Positions 9,769 through 64,000 are shown, counted from the stretch's first letter. The stretch: DNA of 64,000 nt from Candidatus Velesiimonas alkalicola (GCA_013626165.1 NDHX01000006.1:2060-66059), one strand, 5' to 3'. Numbers and translations: made by a program. Notes: generated by a model not told the origin, from the sequence alone.

Positions 9769-9804
9769 TCCTGTTTTTGTAAGAATAGGAATGAAAACTT
9801 AAAA

Positions 9805-41408: not shown

Positions 41409-42548
41409 TTACGCTTCGAAATACTGTTCCATAGAAAAATATCTCTCACCTGTGTCAGGTAAGACTACAACTACTCTTTTACCCTCTCCTAAGTCTTTGG
41501 CTACCTTTAATGCTGAATATGCTGCTGCGCCTGCTGATATACCTACGAATAACCCCTCTTCCCTAGCTAGCCTTCTTGCTGTTCTGAATGCATCATTATC
41601 ATCAACCTGAATTATCTCATCAATTATGCCCTGGTTTAAAACATCGGGAATAAAGCCTGCACCAATACCCTGAATCTTATGTGGGCCCAGTTCTTTTCCC
41701 GAAAGAACAGCACTTGCCGCAGGCTCAACTGCAACTATTTTTATCTTCGGATTATTCTTCTTTAAAACCTCACCTACTCCGGTTATCGTTCCTCCTGTGC
41801 CAACTCCCGCAACAAAGGCGTCAATTTTTCCATCTGTAACAATTAGAATTTCTTTTGCAGTCGTCTTCCTGTGAATCTCAGGGTTAGCCTCATTTTTAAA
41901 CTGTTGAGGCATAAAACTATTTGGAATCTTCTTCAGAATCTCCTCCGCTTTTTTAATAGAACCCCTCATCCCTTCGGCCCCAGGAGTAAGCACCACTTCT
42001 GCACCGTAAGATTTAAGAATATATATTCTCTCTAAACTCATTGTCTCGGGCATAGTAAGAATACATCTATAGCCTTTGACCGCTGAAATCATCGCCAGTC
42101 CTATACCAGTATTACCGCTTGTTGGCTCGATTATGGTTGCACCTGGTTTAAGCAAGCCTTTATCTTCAGCATCTTCAATCATTGAAAGGCAGATTCTATC
42201 TTTAACGCTCCCCCCGGGGTTAAAAGACTCTAATTTTGCCAGAATTTCCGCAGAACCTCCTCCTGCAATCTTATTGAATCTTACCATAGGAGTCTGACCT
42301 ATTAATTCTAATACATTTTCTGCTATTCTTTCCGAAAAAGGCAAACCTCCACCCATATAGTAAACGAACTCTAGCCTATCGTTTGGCTTAAGTTGGGTAG
42401 ATTGATACTTATCTTTACCAATGATTTTATCGTTCAATTCTACTGTAACCACTTCAGGCCTCATCTTTTTAGCGTCCAAAAGACCTGATATGCTAATATT
42501 ATTCTTAATCTCTTCTTTTTTTCCATTTAAGAAAATAGTTATAGCCAT
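41409..42548 (-). CDS. Fusion protein: N-terminal ThiS/MoaD-like domain ending GG(G), followed by cysteine synthase (O-acetylserine/O-phosphoserine sulfhydrylase, CysK/CysM)
   Basis: Residues 1-68 form a ThiS beta-grasp ending YYMGGG. Residues ~70-379 are a full CysK/CysM fold-type II PLP enzyme (SVKDR, GIGLAMI, TSGNTG). Confidence 0.8.
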
Positions 42549-48794: not shown

Positions 48795-49695
48795 GGAAAT
48801 CTTTTAAATACCTCCCCCCATCGGAAACTTTTCCTGTTAAATCAAAAGTTCGTTTTACCCAAATTTCATCTAAAAACTCACCATTTATGTACGCAGACGT
48901 CATCTCTTCTTTTGGTTTCTTGAAAACATTCTTCGCCAAATCATTTTCAATCAACTGGCCTAAATAAAGAAAAATTACGTAGTCTGCAAGCCGCATTGCT
49001 TGTTGAATGTTATGAGTAACTATTATTACAGTATAGTCTTTCTTTAATTCCAACAATTTCTTTTCTATACGTTCCGATGAAACGGGATCTAATGATGAAG
49101 TGGGTTCATCGGCAAGAATTGCTTCCGGTTCAACGGCAAGTCCTCTTGCAAGGCATAATCTTTGCTGTTGCCCTAACGATAATTTTGCCGCAGATGTCCT
49201 TAATCTATCTTTTACTTCATTCCATAGACCTGCTTCTTTCAGATAATGCCGGACTTTTTCATCCAGAAATTTTTTTCCTGTGCGACCGTGAATCCTCAAA
49301 CCATATGCAACATTGTCATATATTGACATCGGCAGTGGATACGGTTTCTGGGGAAGCAATCCTATCTTTTTTCTGAGATAAATTACATCGGTTCTATTAC
49401 CGTAAATATTTTCACCGTTAAATAAAATCTCCCCTGATATTTTAACACTGTTTTGCAACTCCAAGAGTCTGTTAAATGACTTCAATAAAGTTGTTTTGCC
49501 GCAACCGGACGGTCCGATTATAGCAGTTATATTTTTCTCCGGAATATCGACAGTTATATCCTTTAATGCGTGATGATCGTCATAAAATACATTAAGATTT
49601 TTTATGTTTATATGCGTTTTCGCAGATTCCATCCCATTTTCCTCTCTATCTAATAATATGTTTACTAAATTTTTTTGACAATAACCTGGAAACAA
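48775..49695 (-). CDS. pstB: Phosphate ABC transporter ATP-binding protein
   Basis: 306 aa with Walker A GPSGCGKTT, an ABC signature and PstB-like spacing. It overlaps pstA. Confidence 0.8.
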   Translation of the reverse strand: MFPGYCQKNLVNILLDREENGMESAKTHINIKNLNVFYDDHHALKDITVDIPEKNITAIIGPSGCGKTTLLKSFNRLLELQNSVKISGEILFNGENIYGNRTDVIYLRKKIGLLPQKPYPLPMSIYDNVAYGLRIHGRTGKKFLDEKVRHYLKEAGLWNEVKDRLRTSAAKLSLGQQQRLCLARGLAVEPEAILADEPTSSLDPVSSERIEKKLLELKKDYTVIIVTHNIQQAMRLADYVIFLYLGQLIENDLAKNVFKKPKEEMTSAYINGEFLDEIWVKRTFDLTGKVSDGGRYLKDFHDYKKK

Positions 49696-50518
49696 TACTG
49701 ATAGTTAAAAGCAGGACCGTCAACACTATAGCCGAGGCATATCCGCGCTGCTGCACTTCCGGAAAAGGAGTTCCCAACTGGAAAAATATCGCCAGAGGTA
49801 AAGTCGCAACCGGCCTAAACAACGAATAAGGCAGGAAATCGGTAAAACCTGCTGTGAATAATACCGAGGCAGCGTCACCGATACCGCGTCCGAAAGCAAT
49901 AAGGACTGCCGTTAATATCCCGGGCATCGCCTGCTTAAAAATAATTTTTGTTGCGGTCTCTAATCTGGTTGCCCCCAAACTAAAAGATGCCTCTTTCAAT
50001 TCCAGCGGTATCATTTTTAAGATCTCATCCATACTTCTTGCCATTATCGGAATTATCAATAAAGCAACGGTAATCATACCTGCTAATAGCGAAGCGCGAA
50101 GTCCAAAAAATACCATTAAAGTAAAGCCGAATGCTCCGTAGACGATTGATGGAATGCCCCACAAAATATCAAGGAAAAGCCGCACAACCAAAGCAAGTTT
50201 TGAATTTTTTTTCAAATACAAATTTAAGTAAAAAACCATCGGCATACTGACTAAAAAAGCCAAAAATGTTGCTCCAAATCCCAAAACAATTGAACCTAAA
50301 ATAGCATTGAGTATACCGCCTTCTTTACCTATATAATATCCGCCTTCTGGTGTCTTAATAAGCATATCCAGATTCAGCGCCGGCAACCCTTTCAAAAAGA
50401 TTACCGCAAGAATCAGAACTAAACTTCCAACAACTATAAATGTAGAAAAGAGCATAAGAAACTTAAAAAAAATTTCTTCAATTCTCTTGCCGTGCATATC
50501 AGGATTCTCCTCTTTCAA
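49646..50518 (-). CDS. pstA: Phosphate ABC transporter permease
   Basis: 290-aa polytopic permease with an EAA-like loop, in pstCAB order. Confidence 0.75.
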   Translation of the reverse strand: MKEENPDMHGKRIEEIFFKFLMLFSTFIVVGSLVLILAVIFLKGLPALNLDMLIKTPEGGYYIGKEGGILNAILGSIVLGFGATFLAFLVSMPMVFYLNLYLKKNSKLALVVRLFLDILWGIPSIVYGAFGFTLMVFFGLRASLLAGMITVALLIIPIMARSMDEILKMIPLELKEASFSLGATRLETATKIIFKQAMPGILTAVLIAFGRGIGDAASVLFTAGFTDFLPYSLFRPVATLPLAIFFQLGTPFPEVQQRGYASAIVLTVLLLTISIVSRLLSKKFSKHIIR

Positions 50519-51422
50519 TGTGAAATAAAATTACCCGACCAAGTATATTGAATAAAATTGTCACTATCAGAAGGATAAATGCTACCAGAAGCAGCGCCGA
50601 ATCGTATAAAGGTATAGACATCATCTCGCCGTAAGTATTTGCAATAAGTGCAGGTAAAGGATAGACAGGATCAAAAATTGATTTAGGAAATATGTGCATA
50701 GCACATCCGGCGACCATCAAGACAGCCATTGTTTCGCCAAAAGCCCTGGATAACCCTAAAATTACTGCTGCAATAATGCCTGAACGCACTTTTCTTAAGA
50801 CGACAAACCTTGTTGTCTGCCACTGTGTGGCACCTAAAGACAATGATGCCTCTCTCATCTCAACAGGAACTGCTCCGATTACTTCTTCAACAACGGAAAT
50901 AATTAAGGGGAAAACCATCACTGCCAAAACGATACCGGCGGTTAAAGCGGTAAAACCGGTATAATTATTGGAGCGAAACGGAAAAAACGGCAATCCCTCG
51001 CTGAAAAAAGGCATAAGATAGTCCCGCACCAACGGCACGATGGCAATCATCCCCCAAACGCCGTAGACAACCGGCGAAATTCCTGCTAATAAATCAATTA
51101 TCGGTTTAATAACTTCACGAATCTTTTTCGGCGCATATTCAGAAAGAAAAATTGCTGTCAAAACACTTAAAGGCACCGCAATAACCATTGCAATTACGGT
51201 CACCCAAAAAGTTCCAACAATAAAACTTGCCAGACCGAATTGCCCGGAAGTAGGAGACCATGTTACTGAAAAAAGTATCTCTTTTAAGTTATTTACCGCC
51301 AATACCGGTTTTGACCTCCAATATAAACCAAATACCATCAGAAAAGTAATACTCAAAACAAATAAACAGAATAAAAACATTACTCTCTGCGCAACAATAT
51401 CTTTGAATTTTCTGGCATTCAT
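50499..51422 (-). CDS. pstC: Phosphate ABC transporter permease
   Basis: 307-aa polytopic permease, first gene of the pstCAB block. Confidence 0.75.
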   Translation of the reverse strand: MNARKFKDIVAQRVMFLFCLFVLSITFLMVFGLYWRSKPVLAVNNLKEILFSVTWSPTSGQFGLASFIVGTFWVTVIAMVIAVPLSVLTAIFLSEYAPKKIREVIKPIIDLLAGISPVVYGVWGMIAIVPLVRDYLMPFFSEGLPFFPFRSNNYTGFTALTAGIVLAVMVFPLIISVVEEVIGAVPVEMREASLSLGATQWQTTRFVVLRKVRSGIIAAVILGLSRAFGETMAVLMVAGCAMHIFPKSIFDPVYPLPALIANTYGEMMSIPLYDSALLLVAFILLIVTILFNILGRVILFHIERGES

Positions 51423-51463
51423 TTTTTTATCCTAAATTAGCAGGGGGTTCTGTCAAAATCTAA

Positions 51464-51503
51464 CCACAGAGAACACAGAGAATTAACTCTGTGCCCTCTG
51501 TGG
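51464..51503. terminator. Hairpin ccacagag-aacacagag-aattaa-ctctgtgcc-ctctgtgg between the efflux pump gene and pstC
   Basis: An 8-bp perfect outer stem plus an inner stem, flanked by T-rich tracts. It is a plausible intrinsic terminator for the RND operon. Confidence 0.4.
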
Positions 51504-51562
51504 TTTATTTTGTGGTCTATTTATCATTTTTCCGTCATTACTGCAAGTTTATTTTACATTTT

Positions 51563-54500
51563 TCAGTAAGCTCCATTTACTATCTTTTTTCTTGAAGACA
51601 TCCAGCTATAAATCACGGGTAAAACAATCAGGGTTAGTAAAGTAGAGGAAACAAGTCCGCCTACTACTACAATGGCTAAGGGTCTCTGTATTTCCGAGCC
51701 CACTCCGGTAGTTATAATTAAGGGGAGTAATCCCAGTACAGTGGTTATCGTAGCCATTAAAACCGCCCTTAATCTTGACAGAGAACCCTCAATTATTACT
51801 TCTTTCAAAACAAGACCTTCTTTTTTTAGATATTCAAAACTCGTTATTAGTACCAAACCGTTTGTCATGGTAATTCCAAAAAGCGCGATAAATCCAATAG
51901 AAGAGGGGATACTCAAATTCTCCCCAAACATAGCAAGGGCAAATATCCCGCCTACCAATGCCAACGGTATGTTCAGTATAATTAAAAGAACATTCTTAAA
52001 TGAATTAAATAAAATGTAAAGGAGCACGAGAATCAGAAACAGGGTAATCGGAACGACAACCGATAATCTCCGGTTTGCTGCCTGATGCAATTCAAATTGT
52101 CCACCCCAGGAAATCCTGTACCCCGAAGGAATGCTTACCGCCTCTGCTATTCTTTTCTGCGCTTCCTCTACAAAACCACCGGCATCCCGTCCTCTGACAT
52201 TACACTGAATGGAGATAAACCGGCGGGCATCTTCACGGGTTACCTGTCTAATGCCGGTAACCGTGCCGATGTCCGCCAGTTGTTCAAGCGGCACATTATA
52301 CCCGGCAGGAGTGCGAACAAGTAGGTTTCTTATTGACTTAATGTCTTTGCGGTAGGGCTCGGCAAATCTAACCGTGATGCCGAATATTTTCTCTTCTTCA
52401 AAAACCTTGCCGACCTCCTCTCCCCCTATGGCGTCGTGGATTGCATGCTGTATCTCGTAAATATTCAGTCCATGACGTGCTACTTCATCACGGTTTATAT
52501 CTATCTGGACCTGGGTTTGGCCAACTACCTGCTCGGTCCTTAAATCAGCCACTCCCTTTATTGTGGAAAGGACTCCTTCTATTTCCGCTGCTTTTTGACG
52601 GAGAATATCAAAATCCAGTCCAAATAGTTTCACTACCACCTGGGTCCCGGCACCGGCTATCAAATCATCAATCTCGTGCTGGATTGGCTGGGAAAAACTG
52701 ATTGAAGCGCCTGGAAAATCAGCAATACGGCGGTCAATTTTGGAAACAAGTTCTTCCTGGGTTTTAACCGTTTTCCACTTATCCCTGGGATATAGGTCAA
52801 CGGTTATACAGGCAAAATTGGTGTGATGTATATGAGGACCAACCTCCCCGTAACCAATGTCGGAAACAACCCGTTTAACCTCTGGAATAGTCAAGATCTC
52901 TTTTTCTAATTTTGTTGCAATACTACTGATTTCTTTCAAGGATATGTTGGGGTCCATATATACTAAGACCTGAATTGTCCCTTCCTGAAGGGTAGGGATG
53001 AACTCTTTGCCAAGCCGGGTAAAAACCAGCCCGCCCAAGACAAGTAGAATAACCATTGTAGAAACAACCAACAAGCGGCGGGGGAGAAAAAACATCAACA
53101 CTGCCCTGTAAAATTTAAGGGCTATGGAAAAAATGGGTTTCTTTTTCTTCTCTTCACTCTTCCTTTTGTGGAGTAAACTGCAAAATGCGGGAGCGACAAT
53201 CAGAGAATAGAGCAAAGAACCGAGCATAGTCATAGTCACCGCAAAAGCCAGCGGTCTAAACATTTTTCCTTCCACACCCCCAAGAGTAAAGATGGGTATA
53301 AAGACAGCAATGATAATAAAAACGGCAAAAAGTATGGGAGGTCCAACTTCTTTACCAGCAGATAAAATCACTCCTGTGACTGAACCGGTATCAGAATTCT
53401 CCTGCAGGGATGATTGGATCTTTTCTACCATTATAATAGTGGCATCAACTATCATACCCAGAGCAATCGCTACTCCCCCAAAAGATATCAGGTCGCCGGG
53501 TATTCCATAGCGGTGCATCAAAATAAATGCCAATAACATTGAAAAAGGCAGTGAAAAGACCACTATTAAGGTATTGCGGAATTTACCCAAAAAAACAAAT
53601 ACAACAAGAGAAACCAAAATAAACCCTAAAGTAAGTGCTTCTCTGACGGTGTGTATACTGCTTTTAACCAGAGAGGACTGGTCGTAGAAAGTAATTATTC
53701 GGACACCGGGAGGTAAGATTTCATTGATCTCTTTTATTCGTTCTTTCAGACGGCCAATCACCTCAAAGGAATTTGCTCCATGAAGTTTATAGACGCTTCC
53801 GGTCACAATCTCCTTTTGACCATCCATAGAGGCAATGCCGCGCCTAAAAGCGGCTCCAAATTCCACCCTTGCCACATCCCTTACATAAACAGGAACTCCA
53901 TCTTCAATACCGATAACAATATTCTCAATATCACTAACGGTTTCAATCAACCCCAAACTTCGGATAATCCATTCTTCACTTCCTTTTTTCATAATACCAG
54001 CGCCTACATTCAGGTTATTTTGCTGAACCGCCTCAATTATATCCTCCATTGTTAAATCGTATTTCAAAAGTTGAGCGGGATATATCTTTATCTGATACTG
54101 TCTAACATTGCCTCCCTGAGTGATAACCTCGGCAACACCGGGCACAGTTTGAATGTCGGGTTTAATAATCCAGTCCTGAAATGTGCGCAAATCAACATTG
54201 CTATATTCGTCCCCTTCAACATAGTAGGAAAGGATTTTCCCCATTCCGCTGGCGATTGGTCCCATTTCCAGACCATGATGTATCTTTAATCCGTCCGGAA
54301 TAGCTTCTTCGGCTACTTTAAGTCTCTCGGAAACAAGTTGCCGGGCAAAGTATATGTCCACATCATCCTCAAAATAGACCTTTACCGTGGAGAGTCCAAA
54401 TGACGAGAGTGAACGGAGCCGTTGGACACCGGGCAGCCCTAACATCGCAACCTCAATTGGTCGGGTAACTAACGCTTCAATCTCTTCGGGAGCTGTTCCT

Positions 54501-54679
54501 TCAACCTCAGCAAATACCTGCACCAGGTTGGGACTGACATCGGGAAAGGCGTCAATAGGCAGCCGGGTAAGGGAGATAAATCCGGCAATACAAATCCCCA
54601 CAAACCCCAGCACTACTAAGAATTTGTGTCTTAATGAAAACTGAATAATTTTCTCAATCATATTCTCTCCTTCAGACAA
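51563..54679 (-). CDS. Heavy-metal efflux RND transporter (CzcA/CusA family)
   Basis: 1038 aa with 12 TM helices and two large periplasmic loops, showing HME-RND family conservation. Confidence 0.9.
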   Translation of the reverse strand: MSEGENMIEKIIQFSLRHKFLVVLGFVGICIAGFISLTRLPIDAFPDVSPNLVQVFAEVEGTAPEEIEALVTRPIEVAMLGLPGVQRLRSLSSFGLSTVKVYFEDDVDIYFARQLVSERLKVAEEAIPDGLKIHHGLEMGPIASGMGKILSYYVEGDEYSNVDLRTFQDWIIKPDIQTVPGVAEVITQGGNVRQYQIKIYPAQLLKYDLTMEDIIEAVQQNNLNVGAGIMKKGSEEWIIRSLGLIETVSDIENIVIGIEDGVPVYVRDVARVEFGAAFRRGIASMDGQKEIVTGSVYKLHGANSFEVIGRLKERIKEINEILPPGVRIITFYDQSSLVKSSIHTVREALTLGFILVSLVVFVFLGKFRNTLIVVFSLPFSMLLAFILMHRYGIPGDLISFGGVAIALGMIVDATIIMVEKIQSSLQENSDTGSVTGVILSAGKEVGPPILFAVFIIIAVFIPIFTLGGVEGKMFRPLAFAVTMTMLGSLLYSLIVAPAFCSLLHKRKSEEKKKKPIFSIALKFYRAVLMFFLPRRLLVVSTMVILLVLGGLVFTRLGKEFIPTLQEGTIQVLVYMDPNISLKEISSIATKLEKEILTIPEVKRVVSDIGYGEVGPHIHHTNFACITVDLYPRDKWKTVKTQEELVSKIDRRIADFPGASISFSQPIQHEIDDLIAGAGTQVVVKLFGLDFDILRQKAAEIEGVLSTIKGVADLRTEQVVGQTQVQIDINRDEVARHGLNIYEIQHAIHDAIGGEEVGKVFEEEKIFGITVRFAEPYRKDIKSIRNLLVRTPAGYNVPLEQLADIGTVTGIRQVTREDARRFISIQCNVRGRDAGGFVEEAQKRIAEAVSIPSGYRISWGGQFELHQAANRRLSVVVPITLFLILVLLYILFNSFKNVLLIILNIPLALVGGIFALAMFGENLSIPSSIGFIALFGITMTNGLVLITSFEYLKKEGLVLKEVIIEGSLSRLRAVLMATITTVLGLLPLIITTGVGSEIQRPLAIVVVGGLVSSTLLTLIVLPVIYSWMSSRKKIVNGAY

Positions 54680-54681
54680 TT

Positions 54682-55710
54682 TTAATGCGGATGGCCGTGG
54701 GCACCGAAGTCAATAGCCGCTTTCTGGAGTTCAGCTTTCAGGTGAAAACCACCTTTGGTCACTACCTGTTCACCAAGTTTAAGCCCGGCAATCACTTCTG
54801 AAAACTCCTCCCCTGTCGTTCCTAATTTGATTTCCCTCAGTTTGTATCTGTTGTCCCCTATTGGTATGAAAACAATTTCTTTGTTTTCCCATCTTTGTAT
54901 TGCTGAATTGGCAATAGATACCATTTTGTGAGGAGCCGTGTAAATTATATCTCCTGTAACAAACTTACCGAGTTTCAGCGTGTGGTCATAGTTATCAATA
55001 TCTACCCTTATTTTTATAGTTCTTGTTCTCCTGTCAACCCGTGGAGAGATGAATGTTATTTCACCGGGGTAAATCTTGCCGGGATATGCACGGGTTTTCA
55101 CTTTGACTTTTTGTCCCAATTTTACAATGGCTATATCTTTTTCATAGACATCAAAACTTGCTTTCATCGTAGATATATCGGCTATTGTGAAAAGAGAAGT
55201 AAGCATGTCCACTTCTTCTCCCTCAGAAATACGTTGTCCTATAATTAGTGTCCCACTGGGAGATTTTATCTCTTCAATTTTCCCGTCTTTACTGCCTTTG
55301 ACAAGTGCCAGTAAAGTTCCTTTTTCCACATTATCCCCCAAACCAACTTTAACTTCAACTATCTCACCCGGAATATTGGAAGTGACATGGAATAATTTCT
55401 CGCTATCCTGGGCTATCTCTCCGGTAATTCGTAGACTTTTCTTTATATGCCGCATAGCAACCTTATCTGTTTTTAATCCTATCATCTTCTTGCCCCGAGT
55501 AGATATTTGGACAACACCTTCCTCCTCGTGCTCGTGATGAACTCCTTCATCGTGCCTGTGTGGATGTCCCTCTTCAAAACACCAGCAATGGCAGCCCTCT
55601 CCATGTTTATGCGGATGCTCCTCTTCCCTGAATCCTCTCCACACTAATATTCCCACAATTAAACAAACTATACCTACAATTAACAGCCACGGCCAATAAG
55701 ACCTTTTCAT
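54682..55710 (-). CDS. Periplasmic adaptor (membrane fusion protein, CzcB/CusB-like) with a His/Cys-rich N-terminal metal-binding segment
   Basis: 342 aa with a TM anchor, then HPHKHGEGCHCWCFEEGHPHRHDEGVHHEHEEEG, then lipoyl/beta-barrel MFP domains. Confidence 0.85.
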   Translation of the reverse strand: MKRSYWPWLLIVGIVCLIVGILVWRGFREEEHPHKHGEGCHCWCFEEGHPHRHDEGVHHEHEEEGVVQISTRGKKMIGLKTDKVAMRHIKKSLRITGEIAQDSEKLFHVTSNIPGEIVEVKVGLGDNVEKGTLLALVKGSKDGKIEEIKSPSGTLIIGQRISEGEEVDMLTSLFTIADISTMKASFDVYEKDIAIVKLGQKVKVKTRAYPGKIYPGEITFISPRVDRRTRTIKIRVDIDNYDHTLKLGKFVTGDIIYTAPHKMVSIANSAIQRWENKEIVFIPIGDNRYKLREIKLGTTGEEFSEVIAGLKLGEQVVTKGGFHLKAELQKAAIDFGAHGHPH

Positions 55711-55766
55711 AGTTCACCTCCTGTTGTTTTTTCTAAAATCGCCAACTTTGTTTGATGGTCAAGTAT
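55604..55766. repeat. 163-bp direct repeat (adaptor-gene 5' end + upstream region); second copy at 56777-56939
   Basis: Near-identical copies. A third partial copy at 55921-56017 lies inside the coding region of the 321-aa paralogue. Confidence 0.9.
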
Positions 55767-55917
55767 AGACATAGTGTACCGTCCCATAAGTCCCTTTACA
55801 TTTGTCATTGCGAACAAAGTGAAGCAATCTTGTTTTCTGAACCAAAAAGTGAGATTGCTTCGTTGCATCGCCCCTCGCAATGACAGCCAAATGTCAAGAA
55901 ACGTTAGGGACACTACA

Positions 55918-56883
55918 CTAGTGCTCGTGATGAACTCCTTCATCGTGCCTGTGTGGATGTCCCTCTTCAAAACACCAGCAATGGCAGCCCTCTCCATGTC
56001 TATGCGGATGTTCCTTTTTTCTTTCAGCTTCAGCAATGGCATAGGCGCCTTTGGTCACAACGCGCTCACCATCGGATAGACCAGACAAAACCTCTACAAA
56101 GTCATTATCTCTGTTGCCCAGTTCCAGATAACGTTTCTCAAAGGTTTCGCCGGCTACCTGGACGAAAGCTACTGGCTTGCCGTTTTCATCAATCAGAGCC
56201 GACTCTGGTACAACCAAGGTCTCCTGTCCTATCGCTTTTCGTCGTCCCACAGGTTCGGCCCTGGTTAGCATTTTCCATTGCTGTTCCTTGAGAAAACTTA
56301 TGCCAGCGATCTCTTTAGGAAATGGAGCACGGTCAACTTCTTCATGGGAACCATATACCTCAAAAGGCGGCAGTTCGACGAGATGATCTTTGCCTTCAAG
56401 GGGGATAACCAGCGACAGACTCCACTCACCAGGTAGTGGAAAAGTTAGTTCTGGAATGTAAATACCGTCTCTAACCGGAGCCCGTGCGATATGCTTGTCC
56501 GGTGTCTCGGAGCCGCGACGCAAAATGAAAGTAACGGGTCCTTTTCCCCGAGGCTTAAGTGTTTGCAGGTCGGAGACATGGGTGATAAATTTGGTTGGTG
56601 TATTTGCCACGATAAATGCATGCTCAAGGAAAATTTCGAATCGCTCGGTCCAAACCGTGACCTGGGACGATTTTTCTGCGCCATGACCAATATGGACAGG
56701 ATGCTCTGCGTCATGTTTGTGTGCATCTTCCTCCTTCCCTTGTTGTTCGAAACAATAGCAATGGCATACCTCTCCGTGTTTATGCGGATGCTCCTCTTCC
56801 CTGAATCCTCTCCACACTAATATTCCCACAATTAAACAAACTATACCTACAATTAACAGCCACGGCCAATAAGACCTTTTCAT
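55918..56883 (-). CDS. Chimeric, shortened periplasmic adaptor paralogue with His/Cys-rich segments at both termini
   Basis: The N-terminal 38 aa and the C-terminal HPHRHGEGCHCWCFEEGHPHRHDEGVHHEH are identical to the neighbouring adaptor. The middle has a unique domain plus an MFP C-terminal beta-barrel-like segment (ETLVVPESALIDENGKPVAFVQV...GERVVTKG). Confidence 0.6.
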   Translation of the reverse strand: MKRSYWPWLLIVGIVCLIVGILVWRGFREEEHPHKHGEVCHCYCFEQQGKEEDAHKHDAEHPVHIGHGAEKSSQVTVWTERFEIFLEHAFIVANTPTKFITHVSDLQTLKPRGKGPVTFILRRGSETPDKHIARAPVRDGIYIPELTFPLPGEWSLSLVIPLEGKDHLVELPPFEVYGSHEEVDRAPFPKEIAGISFLKEQQWKMLTRAEPVGRRKAIGQETLVVPESALIDENGKPVAFVQVAGETFEKRYLELGNRDNDFVEVLSGLSDGERVVTKGAYAIAEAERKKEHPHRHGEGCHCWCFEEGHPHRHDEGVHHEH

Positions 56884-58115
56884 AGTTCACCTCCTGTTGT
56901 TTTTTCTAAAATCGCTAACTTTATTTGATGGTCAAGTATGGACCTAAAATAACTCAATCGAGTCCCTTTGAATGTTGTTAGAACTTCAAGATAGGTTAAA
57001 AAATCGGTTTTTCCTTCCGCATATTGCATCTCAATCAGCCTGATTAATTCGCTTCCTTTCTTTACAGATTTTTCCATCAGTGCCACTTGCCTATCAGATA
57101 AAACAACCTCCCCAAAGGCATTGTTAACTTCTAATTCTATCTGCCTTTTGAGGAAATTTATTTGATATTCTATCTTTTGTGACTCATTTCTTGCCTCTGC
57201 AATCTCACCTTGTTTTCTATACCAGAAAGGTAAAGGTATTCCCAGGGTGACTCCCAATCTCTGTTCTCTGTCTTCCCGTTCTGCCCAAAAACCGACGGAG
57301 GGGTTAGCAAACCTCTCTTTTCTCATCAATTTTACCTCCATATTTTTTGAATCAAGCATCAGTTTTTTAGCCTTAAGGTCTGGCCTGTTTATCAAAGCAT
57401 TTTTTATAAGCGTGTCTAAATCAAACCGCCTCTCTTTATAAACAAATTCATCGGTGCAAACGAATTTATGAGAGACCGATCTCCCGAGTAAAATATTTAA
57501 TTTTGCCTTATTAAGAGAGAGATCTTTTTCGGCTACTAATAACTCATTTTGAGCGTAAAACATCTCAATCTCCGCCCTGAGTAATTCACTCCTTAAAACT
57601 TCTCCAAGATTAAATTTCTCCCGGACTTTATCCAAAAATTTCCTGGTTAGATTTAAAGACTCCTCAGCAAGTTCCTCTATTTTTCTTGCCAACAATATCT
57701 GAGCATATGATTCCTTAACCTTAAAAGAGACCCCCAAGTGGATTAACTCCAACTCACTTTCGTAGATTTTAATCTCATTTCTTGCCATATTTCCCCGGAG
57801 TGTTCTTTTCCCAAAGAGTTCCAATTCTTGACTGACTTCAACTTCTACACCTCCGGAAGGATTTTTCATTACCGTCTCAAGTTCAGGATTAGGATAAGCC
57901 AAAGCCTGAACAACTCTTGCCCTTGCTGATTCAATATTTTTTTCTGCTGTCACTATTTCAGGATTATTTATAAAAGCGATTTTCAATGCCTCTTCCAAAG
58001 AAAGTTTTTCCAACTCTTCCCCTCCGGCTATCTTAATATGGAAGGACATCAATGTTAACACGATAAGAACGACCTTCATCACAACCTCCTCTGGTATAAT
58101 CTTCACCCTAGACAT
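56880..58115 (-). CDS. Outer-membrane efflux protein (TolC/CzcC/CusC family)
   Basis: 411 aa with a signal peptide and two OEP repeats. It is translationally coupled to the downstream adaptor gene. Confidence 0.8.
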   Translation of the reverse strand: MSRVKIIPEEVVMKVVLIVLTLMSFHIKIAGGEELEKLSLEEALKIAFINNPEIVTAEKNIESARARVVQALAYPNPELETVMKNPSGGVEVEVSQELELFGKRTLRGNMARNEIKIYESELELIHLGVSFKVKESYAQILLARKIEELAEESLNLTRKFLDKVREKFNLGEVLRSELLRAEIEMFYAQNELLVAEKDLSLNKAKLNILLGRSVSHKFVCTDEFVYKERRFDLDTLIKNALINRPDLKAKKLMLDSKNMEVKLMRKERFANPSVGFWAEREDREQRLGVTLGIPLPFWYRKQGEIAEARNESQKIEYQINFLKRQIELEVNNAFGEVVLSDRQVALMEKSVKKGSELIRLIEMQYAEGKTDFLTYLEVLTTFKGTRLSYFRSILDHQIKLAILEKTTGGEL

Positions 58116-58140
58116 CCTAGAGCGAATTGGTTAGTAAATT

Positions 58141-58191
58141 GTTAGATAACGATACATTAAGTATACAACTTAATGTATCGTTAGTCAACAC
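58141..58191. repeat. Second copy of the 53-bp palindrome (left arm slightly degenerate)
   Basis: ...aacgatacattaagtatacaacttaatgtatcgttagtcaacac, with a ~46-nt identity to 40146-40191. It lies between the OMP gene start and pstS. Confidence 0.9.
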
Positions 58192-58258
58192 ATATTCTTT
58201 CATATTATTTTTGACAGTATCTAGCGGGGAGAGGCAAATGCCTCTCCCTTTGTTTGCT

Positions 58259-59194
58259 TTATTCCATTGCGTTCAAAACTTCTTCTCTTTCCGTCTTTGA
58301 CAGCGACAAACTTGTTTGTATTTCGTCAACAATTTTTGTGCCTTCATCAGAAAGAGCAAACTTAATGAACTCTTTTACTAATCCTTTTGGTTTACCTTTG
58401 ACAAAGAAATAATTTTTTCTTGTCACCGGGTATCTACCTGCACGGATTGCTTTGATTGCGGTTTCACGGTCGTTGTAAATTTCATCCGGGTCAGCGAGAC
58501 CATTTTCATTGGAATCAATTGGAACTAACTTCACACCTTTTACTACTGTCCCTTCCCTTGTAAAGACAAAACTAAAGTTAGAATATCCAATCCCAATTGG
58601 GTCTCTTCTAGATGCTTCAAGTAATCCTGGGTCACCAAATATACCCACACCACGCAAATCTTCTTGCTTCTTACCTAAGTATGCTGCCCAAGTTGCTGCC
58701 GCACCGCAAGAATCAGAGCGGGTATAGACATGGATTGGTCTACCTACCTTCCGTCCAACTACTTCATCCCAAGTAGTAATTATGCCGCTGATATAAATGT
58801 CAATCCAGGTCTGTCTCTTTACACCTTTTTTTAGAAGGTCTTGCAGTACTGGATTTTTATCACTTATCGTTGGATATACTGCATCATGCAAAATGTAAAT
58901 TGGCACTATCCCTTTCTTAATCTCTGCCGGGTCAGGGTCACGAGAGACCATTCCGATATCAACTAATCCGGCAATCGCATCTGCCGCGCCTTTTCCGGCG
59001 CCGCCGGCAGAGACATCAATTCTCACACCGGGGTGTTTTTTCCGGAATGCTTCCGCCCAAGCAACCGCAGTCGGATAAATTGCCCAGGCTCCCGATAACG
59101 TTACCGTTCCTTTGAGTTCTTTTTCCTGACTAAACCCAATTTTTCCGCTTAACAACAAAACAACTATTAATAAAATATTTATCATTTTAGTCAT
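58259..59194 (-). CDS. pstS: Periplasmic phosphate-binding protein (PBP-fold)
   Basis: 311 aa with a signal peptide and a type-2 PBP pattern of the PstS family (SGAWAIYP...SAGGAGKG). Confidence 0.6.
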   Translation of the reverse strand: MTKMINILLIVVLLLSGKIGFSQEKELKGTVTLSGAWAIYPTAVAWAEAFRKKHPGVRIDVSAGGAGKGAADAIAGLVDIGMVSRDPDPAEIKKGIVPIYILHDAVYPTISDKNPVLQDLLKKGVKRQTWIDIYISGIITTWDEVVGRKVGRPIHVYTRSDSCGAAATWAAYLGKKQEDLRGVGIFGDPGLLEASRRDPIGIGYSNFSFVFTREGTVVKGVKLVPIDSNENGLADPDEIYNDRETAIKAIRAGRYPVTRKNYFFVKGKPKGLVKEFIKFALSDEGTKIVDEIQTSLSLSKTEREEVLNAME

Positions 59195-59307
59195 CTGATT
59201 TCCCTCCGTTTTTTATTTTTCCGATCATCTGCTCATCAATTTTACTATTTTGTTTTATTTCCATATTCTTAAATATTATATTTTGTGATTTTTGGTTTCT
59301 CTACCAC

Positions 59308-60036
59308 TCAAATCCCATCTCCATCTACATTTTTCAAAGGCCGCGTATGGATTCCGCATTCGCCGCCGCATTTGCTTGTGCCAACCCAGCGTCCGGCACG
59401 CTCATTTTCGTCGGTGGTAATTTGCGTGCAGGTAAAACAATCAAGAGAGCGGTAGCCTTCTTGATAAATCGGATTTACCCGCACAGAATATACTGCCAGA
59501 TATTGCCAGACCTCCCGTTCTTTCCAGATTAAAATCGGATTTAATTTAAGCAACCCTTTATCGCGCTCCTCTACCTCTTTATAATCGGTACGGGTGCGGC
59601 CTTCGGTGCAACGTAAACCCGTTACCCAGCAGGTCGCCTCCATCTCTCTAATTGCGCGACTGGTCGGCTCTACCTTTAATAAATCGCAGCATCGGTTTGG
59701 ATCTGTCCGATACAGCCCTTCGGGAATATCCGCATCATTCTTATAGATTTTTAGTTCCGGATATCTTTCAACCTCCTGGAACATAAATTCAATGGTCTCT
59801 TTGTGTTGGAATCTGGTGGTGACAATAAACCCTCTTATTTTGGGGCTGACACGCTTGGCTAGATCCCATACCGCCACTGAATCTTTACCCAGGCTGTTGG
59901 CCACAACCAATCCGTCACCGTAAACTTTTAATGCTTCGGAGATGAGTTCAATTGACCTGTCCACTTTCTGCTTGAAACTCAATGTTTCCACCAACACCTT
60001 CACATCAGCAGTTTTTGCCTTTTCTAACAATCCCAT
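59308..60036 (-). CDS. cysH: Phosphoadenosine-phosphosulfate/adenylyl-sulfate reductase (thioredoxin-dependent)
   Basis: 242-aa PAPS_reduct fold (SLGKDS) with a C-terminal KCGGECGIH, equivalent to the ECGLH catalytic Cys motif. Confidence 0.75.
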   Translation of the reverse strand: MGLLEKAKTADVKVLVETLSFKQKVDRSIELISEALKVYGDGLVVANSLGKDSVAVWDLAKRVSPKIRGFIVTTRFQHKETIEFMFQEVERYPELKIYKNDADIPEGLYRTDPNRCCDLLKVEPTSRAIREMEATCWVTGLRCTEGRTRTDYKEVEERDKGLLKLNPILIWKEREVWQYLAVYSVRVNPIYQEGYRSLDCFTCTQITTDENERAGRWVGTSKCGGECGIHTRPLKNVDGDGI

Positions 60037-60099: not shown

Positions 60100-60408
60100 T
60101 TACGACAGCGCCTTTGCCAAATCATCTTTTAAGTCAATTTTATTTTCAATGCCGACGGATAGACGGATAAGATTTTCTTTTATCCCCCGTTTTGACCTCT
60201 CTTCTGCAGATAGAGAACTGTGAGTCATTTTTGTAGGATAACAGGCGAGCGATTCAACCCCGCCCAGCGACTCCGCCAGCAGGAACAATTTTAATTTTGA
60301 TACGAATTTTTCAACGGCGGGAAAGCCGCCTTTTATCTCAAAACTTATCATCCCTCCGAAACCGCTCATCTGTTTTTTTGCAAGATTATATTGTTTACTA
60401 CCCGGCAA
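60100..60408 (-). pseudogene. C-terminal ~100-aa remnant of a Cys/Met-metabolism PLP enzyme (cystathionine gamma-synthase/lyase family)
   Basis: 102 aa matching only the C-terminal domain (GFGGMISFEIKGG...LAESLGGVESL...HPATM-like). Its AT-rich codon usage is like the host. It lies 30 bp downstream of a complete GC-rich homologue. Confidence 0.7.
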
Positions 60409-60438
60409 TCCCGGATAATAGACTCGTTGTCGGGCTGA

Positions 60439-61578
60439 CTAACCTTCAGTTTTTGCCAGCGCCTGCTCCAAATCCTCGATTATATCCTCGATATTCTCCA
60501 ATCCCACGGAGAGTCTCACCAGGTTATCGAAGATACCCACCTTCTCCCGGAACTCCTTCGGCATCGAGGCATGGCTCATGGTAGCCGGGTGCTCTACGAG
60601 GGAATTAGCGCCGCCAAGGGACTCCGCTAGAATGAATAGCTCGACACCTCTCAAGAACGAGTTAACCTCGCCATTTATCTCGAAGGACACCATCCCGCCG
60701 AAACCGTCCATCTGCCGGGCGGCGATCTCATGACCCGGATGAGACTTCAGTCCGGGATAGAATACCCTGCTTACCCGGGGGTGTTTCTCCAGAAATGAGG
60801 CGACCGCGGCAGCAGACATCGCATGCTGCTTAACCCTCAAAGGCAGGGTCTTGATCCCGCGAAGCACCAGCCAGCAGTCAAAGGGTGAGGCACAGGTGCC
60901 CAGAGCATTCAAGAGAAATTGCACCTTTTGGGTTAGATCATCGGTAGCGGTCACTATCGCCCCACCGACAACATCGCAGTGGCCGTTGAGATACTTGGTA
61001 GTAGAATGCACCACCAAATCAACGCCATACTCAATTGGCCGCAGGAAACAGGGCGTGGGAAAGGTATTATCCGCCATGGTCAACAGATTATGCTTTCGGG
61101 CAATATCTACCACCATCTCTACATCCGTGATATTTAGCAGCGGATTGGAGGGGGTCTCGATCCATATCATCCTGGTATTGGGCCTTATGGCATCCTCGAT
61201 CTCCCGTCTGTTATTCAGACGTAGGAAGGTAAACTCCAATCCGAAGTTGGTCATCACATCTTGAAACAGACGGTAGGTTCCGCCGTAGATGTCATCTCCG
61301 GAGATCACATGGTCTCCGGCCTTCAGCAAATATATTGCGGTGGCTTCGGCAGCCATGCCGGTGGCAAAGGCAAATCCCGCCTTTCCGCCCTCGAGCCTGG
61401 CGATGGTCTCCTCCAACACCTTCCTGGTGGGGTTGGAGGTGCGAGAATAGTCGTAGCCCCTGGTCTTGCCCACATCCTCAAAGGCAAAGGTGGAGGTCTG
61501 ATAGATCGGTGTGATTAATGCGCCGGTGGTGGGATCGGGCTTTTCGCTGCCATGAATCGCTAATGTTTCGAATCTCAT
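60439..61578 (-). CDS. Cystathionine gamma-lyase/gamma-synthase / O-acetylhomoserine sulfhydrylase family PLP enzyme
   Basis: 379 aa, full-length Cys_Met_Meta_PP pattern, ~55% GC. Confidence 0.85.
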   Translation of the reverse strand: MRFETLAIHGSEKPDPTTGALITPIYQTSTFAFEDVGKTRGYDYSRTSNPTRKVLEETIARLEGGKAGFAFATGMAAEATAIYLLKAGDHVISGDDIYGGTYRLFQDVMTNFGLEFTFLRLNNRREIEDAIRPNTRMIWIETPSNPLLNITDVEMVVDIARKHNLLTMADNTFPTPCFLRPIEYGVDLVVHSTTKYLNGHCDVVGGAIVTATDDLTQKVQFLLNALGTCASPFDCWLVLRGIKTLPLRVKQHAMSAAAVASFLEKHPRVSRVFYPGLKSHPGHEIAARQMDGFGGMVSFEINGEVNSFLRGVELFILAESLGGANSLVEHPATMSHASMPKEFREKVGIFDNLVRLSVGLENIEDIIEDLEQALAKTEG

Positions 61579-61720
61579 ATTTCTTCTCCTTCCTTTTCTC
61601 TTTGCAGGGGGGCTTCTCTATCCCCACTGAAGCCTCCAACATCTCCGGTCGCCTTTCGAGCCTGTCCTGATACTCATCAGCACCGGTCCGATCGCCTCAG
61701 CCGTGGGATCGGGTAGCCTT

Positions 61721-62737
61721 TCATGCAGTTGCTTCCGAATCGAAAGAGAATAACGGAGTGGACACATATCTCTCACCCGAGTCAGGGAAGACAACGACAA
61801 TGAGTTTCCCCTTGTTTTGCGGCCTTTTCGCCACCTGTAAAGCTGCCCACATGGCTGCCCCCGAAGATATGCCACAGAGTATCCCTTCTTCTTTAGCCAC
61901 TCTTCTGGCTGTAGTGAAGGCATCTTCATTTGTTACAGTGATGACCTCATCAAGAATTTTGCGATTTAGCACCTTCGGCACAAAACCAGCGCCAATCCCC
62001 TGTATACGATGCGGTCCTGGTCTACCTCCGGAAAGCACCGGAGATGCTTCTGGTTCCACCCCGATTGCTTGAAAAGAAGGCTTGCGCTTCTTAATTACCT
62101 CCGATACCCCGGTAACCGTCCCTCCTGTACCGATACCTGCAACCAGGATATCCACTCTACCACCGGTATCCTCCCAGATTTCCTCCGCCGTGGTTAGACG
62201 ATGGACATGTGGATTAGCCAGATTTTCAAACTGCTGGGGGACAAAGCTGCCCCGGATCTGGCGATGCAGCTCCTCTGCCTTGCTAATAGCGCCCTTCATC
62301 CCCTCTGAACCTGGTGTAAGTACAACCTCAGCCCCTAATATCTGCAGAATCTTCCGGCGCTCTATCGACATCGTCTCGGGCATAGTTAAAACCAGGCGAT
62401 ATCCCATGGCGGCGCAGGCAAGAGCCAACCCAATCCCGGTGTTCCCGGAGGTAGGCTCTATAATCACCATCCCCGGCTTAAGCAACCCCACTCTCTCTGC
62501 TGCCTCGAGCATGGCTGCGCCGATTCTATCCTTCACGCTGTTTAAGGGATTAAACGACTCCAGCTTGGCTACTACCTCGGCTCCGCAATCGCGTGTCAGC
62601 CGATTTATCCTGACAAGAGGAGTGCAGCCAATTACCCGGGTTATATCCTGGTAAATCTTACCTCGAAAATTCTTCTCCCGAATCGGAACTTCATCCGGAG
62701 ATTCAATTTGATTTATGTTCATCCATCTTCTCCTCAA
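61721..62737 (-). CDS. cysK: Cysteine synthase (O-acetylserine sulfhydrylase)
   Basis: 338 aa with SVKDR PLP-lysine and TSGNTG motifs. GC-rich. Confidence 0.85.
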
Positions 62738-63613
62738 TTAAATAACATAATCTAAAGCCTCGCCAATAACATCGAAGCGATAAATCTGGAAAATACGGTT
62801 CTCCAACTCCACTAATTCTTTGTTGCCACGCATTCTCGGTCTGGGGACATCTACGGAAATGATATTGCGGACCGTACCCGGCTGAGGTGAAAATACGATT
62901 ATGCGGTCAGCAAGATATACCGCCTCCTCAATGTCATGAGTTACGAAAACGACAGTCTTTTGCATAATTTTCCAGATGTTTAAAAGATCATCCTGTAGTT
63001 TTTCCCGCGAAAGAGCATCAATTGCCGCAAAGGGCTCATCCATCAGGATAATCTTTGGTTCCACCGAAAGAGCCCTAGCCAGGGCAACACGCTGACGCAT
63101 TCCTCCTGAAAGTTGGGAGGGATATCTATTTTCAGCACCGCTCAAACCCACAAGGCTTAAGTACCTTCTAGCCAGTTGCTCCCTTTCCCCGCTCAATACA
63201 CCACGCAGTTTCAAGGTAAAAAGCACGTTTTCTAATGCGGTCATCCATGGATAAATACTATAATCCTGGAAAATCATAGCAATATCAAACTTCGGGGTGT
63301 CTCGAAACAGGTTATTGGCGATCGGTGACAGGAAGCGGTATTTCTTTTGATAAGCATCCATTTCCTTGCGTGTGTGAGGGAGTGGTTCTAATACCATCTT
63401 ATCCTGCATGTAGACCTGTCCCTCAGATGGGGCCTGTAACCCTGCCAGGATTTCCAGGAAAGTAGACTTGCCGCAACCGGTAGGACCAACGATAGCCACA
63501 AACTCGCCATCTTCGATTTTTAATGAGACGGATAAAACTGCAGTATTCCCCTCGGCTATTCCATTAGGGTTAATTACTGAAAAGAACTTGGTGATTTCCC
63601 TGGCTTCGATCAT
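62738..63613 (-). CDS. ABC transporter ATP-binding protein of the nitrate/sulfonate/taurine (NitT/TauT) type
   Basis: 291 aa with Walker A GPTGCGKST, signature LSGGMRQR and Walker B ILMDEPF. Confidence 0.8.
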   Translation of the reverse strand: MIEAREITKFFSVINPNGIAEGNTAVLSVSLKIEDGEFVAIVGPTGCGKSTFLEILAGLQAPSEGQVYMQDKMVLEPLPHTRKEMDAYQKKYRFLSPIANNLFRDTPKFDIAMIFQDYSIYPWMTALENVLFTLKLRGVLSGEREQLARRYLSLVGLSGAENRYPSQLSGGMRQRVALARALSVEPKIILMDEPFAAIDALSREKLQDDLLNIWKIMQKTVVFVTHDIEEAVYLADRIIVFSPQPGTVRNIISVDVPRPRMRGNKELVELENRIFQIYRFDVIGEALDYVI

Positions 63614-63619
63614 GGCTGA

Positions 63620-64000
63620 TTACCTCCCCGCCTTCCAGAAAGCGAGTTTAAGTTCAAGGTGCTTCATGATTTCAATGAGAAACCAGCCCATAAAACCCAG
63701 GGTAAGCATACAAACCACCATCCTGTCTATGCGAAAGAATTCCTTGGATTCCACCAAAAGCCAGCCAATGCCATTAGGGGCGCCGTACATCTCGGCTATT
63801 ACCAGCATCACCAGCCCCAGGGCTATGCCGATTTTAATCCCCATAATCACAGAGCCAAGCGCAGCAGGAACATAGACATGCTTAATCAAAGTAAATTCAC
63901 TGGCACCATAAACCCGCGCCGAGGCAATATACCTTGGCTCAGTATCTTTCACCGCCTGATAAGTGTTAAAAAGAATGGGATAAAAAGCACCCAGGAAAAC
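63620..64000 (-). CDS. ABC permease (SsuC/TauC-like), 5' end beyond the window
   Basis: C-terminal TM segments of a binding-protein-dependent permease. The reading frame stays open to position 64000. Confidence 0.7.
   Translation of the reverse strand, partial: VFLGAFYPILFNTYQAVKDTEPRYIASARVYGASEFTLIKHVYVPAALGSVIMGIKIGIALGLVMLVIAEMYGAPNGIGWLLVESKEFFRIDRMVVCMLTLGFMGWFLIEIMKHLELKLAFWKAGR

Follow-up and report, generated by a model that had tools for sequence, protein, structure and literature searches.

Gene organisation and base composition of the locus

We analysed a 64,000-nt stretch of DNA from Candidatus Velesiimonas alkalicola (GCA_013626165.1, NDHX01000006.1:2060-66059; hereafter the window, to which all coordinates refer), which near its end contains, side by side, a complete gene for a pyridoxal phosphate (PLP)-dependent enzyme of Cys/Met metabolism and the C-terminal part of a second gene of the same family, an arrangement that is probably the outcome of xenologous gene displacement in situ. 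All genes at 56–64 kb are located on the minus strand, and contigs and proteins of other assemblies are designated by codes (L001 etc. and P0252 etc., respectively). The complete PLP gene (60439..61578, 379 aa) follows cysK (61721..62722, or to 62737; cysteine synthase A, TIGR01139, 457 bits, over the cut-off) after a spacer of 142 bp. It ends in a TAG stop codon, and after 30 bp is followed by a 102-aa open reading frame (ORF, 60100–60408), the frame of which stays open upstream to 60438 (112 codons). Downstream of this fragment lies cysH (59308..60036; PAPS/APS reductase, NF002537, 154 bits), the anchor gene on the host side. The cysH, PLP enzyme and cysK products are deposited at NCBI as MBA2124040.1, MBA2124042.1 and MBA2124043.1 of 'bacterium Unc6', from a contig of 94,249 bp.

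Base composition was compared with that of the 35 genes below 48 kb (GC 37.4 ± 3.6%, GC at third codon positions (GC3) 32.5 ± 5.7%). The complete PLP gene had a GC content of 53.7% and a GC3 of 65.8% (z = 5.9), as compared with 42.3% and 41.7% (z = 1.6) for the fragment, so both coordinates and composition agree with the preliminary description of this DNA, which had noted a GC-rich full-length enzyme gene placed 30 bp ahead of an AT-rich C-terminal fragment with host-like codons. Values for cysK were GC 51.6% and GC3 51.5% (z = 3.3). Two broader statements on composition hold only in part. A GC content of ~55% up to the window end applies to 60424–62737 only (~52–54%), but not to the NitT/TauT-family ABC transporter genes beyond it (45–48%), which encode a 291-aa ATPase (62738..63613; NCBIfam family matches, GC 45.2%, GC3 46.9%) and the 3′ part of a permease that extends past the window end (63620..64000; NCBIfam SaoP/SsuC/TauC-type matches, GC 48.0%, GC3 55.9%). 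Similarly, the value of ~38% for everything upstream matches the background of 37.4%, but not the patches of 43–50% at 52–57 kb nor cysH (46.5%).

The complete PLP gene is of Dehalococcoidia type

Residues 1–377 of the 379-aa enzyme match positions 1–379/380 of the NCBIfam model NF004821 (E = 4e-147), with matches of similar strength to the models for cystathionine γ-lyase (CGL), cystathionine β-lyase (CBL) and methionine γ-lyase (MGL). The enzyme is thus predicted to belong to the cystathionine γ-synthase (CGS)/CGL/CBL/MGL group, and since all scores are under the equivalog cut-offs we do not assign an exact reaction. The Pfam family PF01053 is precomputed for relatives that are 96–99% identical to it, and the sequence DLVVHSTTKYLNGH at residues ~187–200, the candidate S-x-T-K stretch with the Schiff-base lysine, differs from a PROSITE-style pattern at the last position only.

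Among the best 120 matches, the named relatives were Dehalococcoidia or Chloroflexi throughout (77–79% aa identity). The protein P0252, from the same 90% cluster, was identical to the window enzyme at 375/376 aa (99.7%) and is located on ten contigs, up to 124 kb in length, of five Dehalococcoidia/Chloroflexota assemblies, with a nucleotide identity to Dehalococcoidia contigs of 99.2% over 1150 bp. On L001–L003 and L092–L096, the gene is part of an array consisting of a cysE-like hexapeptide gene, the PLP enzyme gene, a PALP gene (410–422 aa) and a NIL-domain gene, and this order is conserved across both Dehalococcoidia lineages (L001–L003 versus L092, 87–88% nt identity). The window retains parts of this donor context on both sides of the gene. 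Upstream, a decayed piece of the cysE-like gene is present at 61620..61726 (80–83% nt identity to L001 676–780 and L092 5807–5905), which represents residues ~174–228 of 238 and is frameshifted, with tblastn matches in two frames, while ~97 bp corresponding to the gene end and spacer are absent after it. Downstream, homology to L001–L003 continues for 15 nt past the stop codon (60424..60438) and ends at 60424/60423.

By these comparisons the PLP gene is identified as Dehalococcoidia-type and foreign to the host contig, an assignment made by identity ranks and the conserved donor context. The affinity of the gene differs from that of its flank, as cysH and the genes downstream are of Omnitrophota/Elusimicrobiota type. 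Transfer in the opposite direction, to Dehalococcoidia, does not appear credible, because composition and conserved context both sit with Dehalococcoidia.

The downstream fragment is the tail of a resident gene

The 102-aa ORF had been described as only the C-terminal domain of the same PLP-enzyme family, which was borne out by BLASTP, with 51% identity to residues 271–375 of the full gene (E = 3e-35), and by NCBIfam, where it covers only profile positions ~270–380 in every CGS/CGL/MGL model. The remnant as a whole (60100..60423) corresponds to codons ~271–378 and the stop codon, as delimited by homology to L007, L031 and the neighbouring gene, and its first codon is the equivalent of V271 (GTC at 60423). 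It does not form a complete catalytic unit, as the homologous C-terminal domain is present without an N-terminal or PLP-binding domain. In the full gene, the PLP-lysine region is marked by the STTKYLNGH stretch (residues ~192–200), which precedes the point of truncation, so the remnant cannot be a complete enzyme and is presumably inactive.

An intact native gene at the corresponding site in a related genome, which the preliminary description suggested looking for, is present on L007 (JBBAAR010000013.1, 39% GC), where a 378-aa gene (8803–9936) ends 64 bp before cysH (10001–10705), directly upstream of it. Downstream of cysH, L007 is syntenic with the window, with homologues of the window genes from 48.4 kb downward. 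Over 109 residues, the fragment shares 83% identity with the end of this intact gene, and it has a 73% match on L031, a few kb from cysH. It is free of frameshifts and internal stop codons, and its identity to L007 exceeds that of all other shared genes (35–79%), which suggests that the remnant has not decayed and that truncation was recent. The fragment is thus what is left of a resident gene whose former place is the one at which the foreign gene ends today.

The right junction recurs in other assemblies

The foreign DNA meets the remnant at ~60423, and the same join is found on three other contigs: L004 (GCA_018725385.1), colinear with window 61527–58242; L097 (BBPG01003303.1), found by a scan for a junction-spanning 31-mer and covering 60468–58191; and L099, a Logan contig of DRR093102, covering 60531–58189. 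All three are 100% identical to the window on the AT-rich side, barring one patch in cysH. As L099 is a k-mer-graph contig, we assume that the reads contain k-mers across the junction. Microhomology at the join is limited to ≤1–3 nt within 60422–60425, and exact matches between remnant and full gene reach 9 nt at most, which leaves a mis-join in an assembly graph without a route. A mis-join would have had to arise at one and the same base in four assemblies without any shared sequence behind it, which is implausible, and we consider the right junction established, short of read-level proof. A chimeric contig, named at the outset as what would speak against displacement, therefore fails as an explanation of the ~60423 join.

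Probable displacement of the resident gene in situ

Taken as a sequence of events, an ancestor would have carried its own CGS/CGL-family gene directly upstream of cysH, as in L007, and would have received a Dehalococcoidia piece that began within the cysE-like gene, ran through the whole CGS/CGL-family gene and ended 15 nt past its stop codon. This piece would have been joined illegitimately to the resident gene at codon ~271, using ≤1–3 nt of microhomology, with removal of the first ~270 codons (about three quarters of the gene) and anything upstream. The simplest reading of the mechanism would be that an incoming fragment was attached by illegitimate end-joining while resident DNA was deleted, and the event is likely to be very recent, as the donor alleles are 93–99% identical at the nucleotide level. 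The incoming gene would now provide the enzyme, with the old tail left as a dead, not yet decayed remnant. The foreign gene is probably co-transcribed with cysK, which precedes it, and with cysH, which follows, since the genes are co-directional and no terminator-like site was found on the minus strand between cysK, the xenologue, the remnant and cysH, in scans where promoter and terminator matches were at chance level. There were zero Rfam matches to riboswitches or other RNAs at 56–64 kb.

We consider xenologous displacement in situ the probable explanation of the locus, in agreement with the earlier proposal that acquired DNA displaced the 5′ portion of the native gene; the donor clade, the intact gene of L007 and the recurrent ~60423 join all argue for it. 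Several observations weigh against it. Among the 80 cysH loci obtained in a scan of one genome per species, a resident-type gene stands beside cysH only in L007 and, loosely, in L031, and 8 of the 12 inspectable Omnitrophota loci (L011, L014, L015, L018, L021, L023, L024 and L051) have a ~140-aa protein that is not a PLP enzyme directly upstream of cysH, which, judged by its N-terminal sequence, we take to be an Rrf2-family regulator. The 'native' PLP gene may itself be an earlier acquisition, or a lineage-specific arrangement of the Unc6 lineage and L007. Furthermore, the join of cysK and PLP segment at ~61735 occurs only in this contig, with four other assemblies breaking there, and an identical core of ~1,050 bp within the PLP gene indicates that either the assembly or the locus was disturbed a second time.

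Two alleles of the PLP gene and alternative explanations

This core tract (60460..61510) became apparent from sliding identity and the pattern of variable sites; it matches the allele of the co-resident Dehalococcoidia (L092–L096) at 100% identity. The first ~90 nt (61600–61516) and the final ~12 nt of the gene depart from the L092 allele and, from the start of L004 at 61527 onward, agree with the allele of L004, L097 and L099, referred to here as Unc6-type. L004 and L092 are distinguished by 74 sites, of which the first 4 have the L004 base in the window and the remaining 70 the L092 base, with diagnostic bases of L092-type at 61510–61501 and 60462/60460 and of L004-type at 61522–61516. The Unc6-type allele shares 93.1% identity with L092 and 96.4% with L001, and its 3′ end reads 'AAAAACTGAAGGTTAG' / 'AAAAACTGAAGGTTAGTCAGCC'. 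The loss of one A from an A-run (window 60439–60453) changes the ...AKN* terminus of L001/L002 to ...AKTEG*, and this terminus marks every Unc6-type copy: the window, L004, L097, L099 and the full-length protein P0260, encoded by a 24-kb contig at NCBI. The Dehalococcoidia allele and the Unc6-like organism are found together, with L096, L086 and L097 all in assembly BBPG. L099 starts 30 nt upstream of the first allele difference after a 55-nt shared run, the breakpoint expected of a k = 31 graph containing both alleles. A second tract of allelic difference is located in cysH (59764–59914), where 32–36 substitutions in ~150 bp lead to only 4 amino acid changes while the surrounding ~2 kb is identical. 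The window and L099 share one allele of this patch, and L004 and L097 the other; since each allele is carried by two assemblies, it appears to be a true polymorphism originating from recombination.

The PLP core would be either a later gene conversion from neighbouring Dehalococcoidia or cross-talk during assembly or polishing, and may thus be an assembly artefact of this contig. Gene conversion, which would complement the displacement rather than exclude it, implies that the displacement is real, that its core was later overwritten from the co-resident Dehalococcoidia and that exchange between the phyla is ongoing; we regard this as a serious possibility, although not the favoured one. It is consistent with the single clean tract, which switches once per end (four L004-type sites followed by 70 of L092-type), at switch points within identity runs of 5 and 9 nt that are too short for a path switch in a de Bruijn graph. 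On the 3′ side the switch falls where homology ends, which is what assimilation of a donor strand up to that point would give, and the patch in cysH (59914–59764), with two assemblies per allele, provides a second case of recombination. However, L099 combines the cysH allele of the window with an L004-type PLP 3′ end, the L004-type allele is found in three of the four junction-crossing assemblies, and read-mapping polishing in a Dehalococcoidia-dominated sample could give the same tract. A somewhat more tentative extension is that the acquired gene serves as a homology landing pad, through which the host keeps recombining with co-living Dehalococcoidia in a continuing inter-phylum gene conversion. 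As most Omnitrophota have been proposed to be predators or parasites of other cells (PMC10066038, on a different subject from this locus), the Dehalococcoidia partner could even be prey of the Omnitrophota-like host. Gene exchange involving Omnitrophota was also inferred in groundwater (PMC12455944, likewise on a different subject).

An assembly chimera, in which GC-rich Dehalococcoidia DNA was wrongly joined to an Omnitrophota-like contig, is improbable. Both organisms are present in one metagenome, as seen from the BBPG contigs (L096 being a Dehalococcoidia PLP contig), the tract at 61510–60460 is identical to the Dehalococcoidia allele, contigs of other assemblies break at 61735, 60531 and 60468, and short contigs of the locus have been binned as 'Dehalococcoidia' by others. 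Against this, the right junction recurs in four assemblies, one of them a k-mer-graph contig, and the exact match between remnant and full gene never exceeds 9 nt. The gene ends, the cysE piece (80–83%) and the 3′ flank are unlike the co-resident Dehalococcoidia allele, which argues that the GC-rich DNA is not simply that of the co-resident Dehalococcoidia, and the distinct Unc6-type allele (...AKTEG) is full-length on a 24-kb contig (P0260). A chimera would be conceivable only for the cysK-PLP join and the core tract.

It is very unlikely that the fragment is functional, either as a stand-alone C-terminal domain protein or as a read-through extension past the TAG codon. The 112-codon open frame is in phase with the upstream gene, but such phasing has a chance of 1 in 3 and was given zero weight. 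The fragment is identical in the window, L004, L097 and L099; as these assemblies are ~100% identical across the AT-rich side anyway, its conservation is uninformative. The gene caller predicts an 83-aa product from an internal ATG, but this is not preceded by a convincing ribosome-binding site (by eye), the fragment is without the PLP-lysine region, and a known stand-alone form of the domain was neither sought nor found. Finally, a tandem duplication of part of the enzyme gene, with later divergence of the copies, suggested by the head-to-tail, in-frame arrangement of homologous segments, can be set aside, as the copies are only 51% identical at the protein level with exact matches of ≤9 nt, differ in GC3 (66% versus 42%) and have separate relatives, with the fragment 83% identical to L007 and the full gene 99.7% to Dehalococcoidia genes.

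The cysK/ABC segment and the left junction

The cysK gene also looks foreign, with its best non-self relatives 77–82% identical (Dehalococcoidales, Atribacteraceae, Limnocylindrales and others) as compared with 67–69% for the best cysK-like matches on contigs of host relatives. The exact ATPase protein was found on several short contigs from different samples, with the next relatives at 80% aa identity, and contigs L085–L090, 99.8–100% identical to the window, carry the full permease gene (282 aa). The ATPase-cysK-Rrf2 module has a nucleotide identity of 75% on L098 and 71.5% on the Dehalococcoidia contig L092, and we found no close donor of the cysK/ABC segment. With closest relatives at 77–82% aa and the module at 71.5–75% nt identity, the block is a mosaic, in which the cysK/ABC genes, compositionally foreign as well, have a history separate from, or much older than, that of the PLP segment (61726–60424). 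The preliminary reading of horizontally acquired GC-rich DNA thus holds for the PLP segment, but not for a block taken up in one piece. A single donor with an L092-like ATPase-cysK-Rrf2-...-cysE-PLP array that later lost its middle would fit the gene order, but a single recent event of this kind is unsupported, as cysK is 71% identical at the nucleotide level versus 93–99% for the PLP gene. L091 (JGI), a candidate donor because of ABC genes upstream of its PLP gene, was rejected as source of the ABC segment, with its PLP gene at 86% nt and its ATPase at only 45% aa identity.

The left junction, where the cysK segment meets the PLP segment derived from the donor, was placed at 61727..61735 by contig ends and the start of donor homology: L085, L086, L087 and L090, from four samples and 99.8% identical over 64000–61735, all end exactly at 61735, and homology to the donor cysE-like gene starts at ~61726. 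A 24-mer spanning this junction was absent from the JGI metagenome contigs scanned. The shared ends imply a branch in the assembly graphs: strains may vary here, a second copy may exist, or the join in this contig may be wrong. On its left side, the foreign DNA reaches past the window end.

The permease-ATPase-cysK segment is present at 99.8–100% identity in DRR093101/102/104, SRR8194967, SRR21423783 and contigs of assembly BBPG. These contigs end at shared bases (61735, or 62130 in two of them) and their starts, upstream of the permease, fall within ~300 bp, next to a palindromic repeat-like sequence in L088, so that the segment is flanked by graph branches at both sides. The palindromic motif upstream of the L088 permease, considered as a host repeat, had zero copies in the window.

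Host lineage and other regions of the window

The 80 cysH loci were mostly from Candidatus Omnitrophota, with others from Elusimicrobiota, Margulisiibacteriota, Saganbacteria and metagenome-assembled genomes (MAGs) labelled Planctomycetia, and the window cysH was 72–82% identical to that of Omnitrophota/Elusimicrobiota MAGs. In a comparison of 9–11 syntenic genes (cysH together with the haem/sirohaem genes and the ThiS-PALP fusion at 39–48 kb), the closest loci were Omnitrophota MAGs, with 62–69% mean aa identity. TolC, HlyD and AcrB are encoded in the window, which fits a diderm. The host thus appears to be a 38% GC Omnitrophota-like diderm, matching the Omnitrophota gene order. A search for literature on 'Unc6' or on the run and assembly accessions found nothing.

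L007 and the Omnitrophota relatives lack, between cysH and the haem genes, the stretch 48795–59300, which encodes a PstS-like binding protein, TolC/unknown/HlyD/AcrB, an ATPase and two ABC permeases. The gene for the PstS-family substrate-binding protein (58259..59194), on the host side of the right junction, is colinear with that junction in L004, L097 and L099. On L033, the binding-protein gene adjoins the permease gene without RND efflux genes, which makes the efflux cluster (51563–58115, locally 43–50% GC) look like a further insertion into an ABC operon. L097 leaves the path of the window after the binding-protein gene (58191); its segment 2279–4102 includes a 58-bp match to window 51522–51465, a 324-aa ORF, of which we take the C-terminal part to be a putative ECF sigma factor, and two small ORFs, before it rejoins the TolC start (58092–58061). 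This is probably a structural variant in the same population. The ThiS-PALP fusion gene (41409–42548, 379 aa) is 60% identical to the window cysK over the PALP part and 71–83% identical to its counterparts in Omnitrophota relatives, and may be a second, native cysteine-synthase-like gene, with a CysO-CysM-type sulfur-carrier route as a possibility. Proteins of short contigs from the Omnitrophota-like locus, namely proteins of L004 and the ATPase (P0004, P0245 and P0263), are named 'Dehalococcoidia bacterium' or 'Bacillota bacterium' at NCBI; these contigs are probably mis-binned, possibly owing to the transferred GC-rich genes.

Comparison with known systems

The locus offers a snapshot of the replacement of an operon gene, in which donor, recipient, both scars and the truncation point can be read at nucleotide resolution, and it represents a transfer between phyla sharing a habitat, from Chloroflexota to an Omnitrophota-like lineage. 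It also holds a practical lesson, as public MAGs bin short contigs of this locus as Dehalococcoidia and assemblies break up exactly at the gene that is shared. Should the identical core tract prove real, it would represent ongoing inter-phylum homologous recombination, which has rarely been demonstrated.

The phenomenon itself is known, and what is less usual is that scars persist at either side and that the sequence is nearly identical to that of a donor population in the same samples. Xenologous gene displacement in situ is said to have been described, together with mosaic operons, by Omelchenko, Makarova, Wolf, Rogozin and Koonin (Genome Biol 2003;4:R55), with cases reportedly derived mostly from gene trees. 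Our locus resembles these in that a gene in a sulfur-assimilation neighbourhood (cysK, a CGS/CGL-family gene and cysH) was replaced by a distant homologue that belongs to the same family but comes from another phylum, with position and orientation of the replaced gene kept. It differs in its physical scars (the truncated resident gene, the piece of the donor neighbour gene and the donor 3′ flank), in the 93–99% nt identity of the donor alleles that marks a very recent event, and in that insertion went along with deletion, at a junction without homology. Homology-facilitated illegitimate recombination is known from naturally transformable bacteria, and is similar in that one end of the foreign segment is joined with a microhomology of a few nucleotides (60422–60425), but here the homologous anchor end, if any, is not visible in the window. 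Genomic islands and insertions mediated by insertion sequences or integrases likewise produce a compositionally deviant multi-gene block in the chromosome. In contrast to these, the region 57.5–64 kb has no integrase or transposase, no tRNA as target is nearby (the only tRNAs in the window are at 5.1–5.4 kb) and no direct or inverted repeats flank the block inside the window, which sets this locus apart from islands borne by mobile elements.

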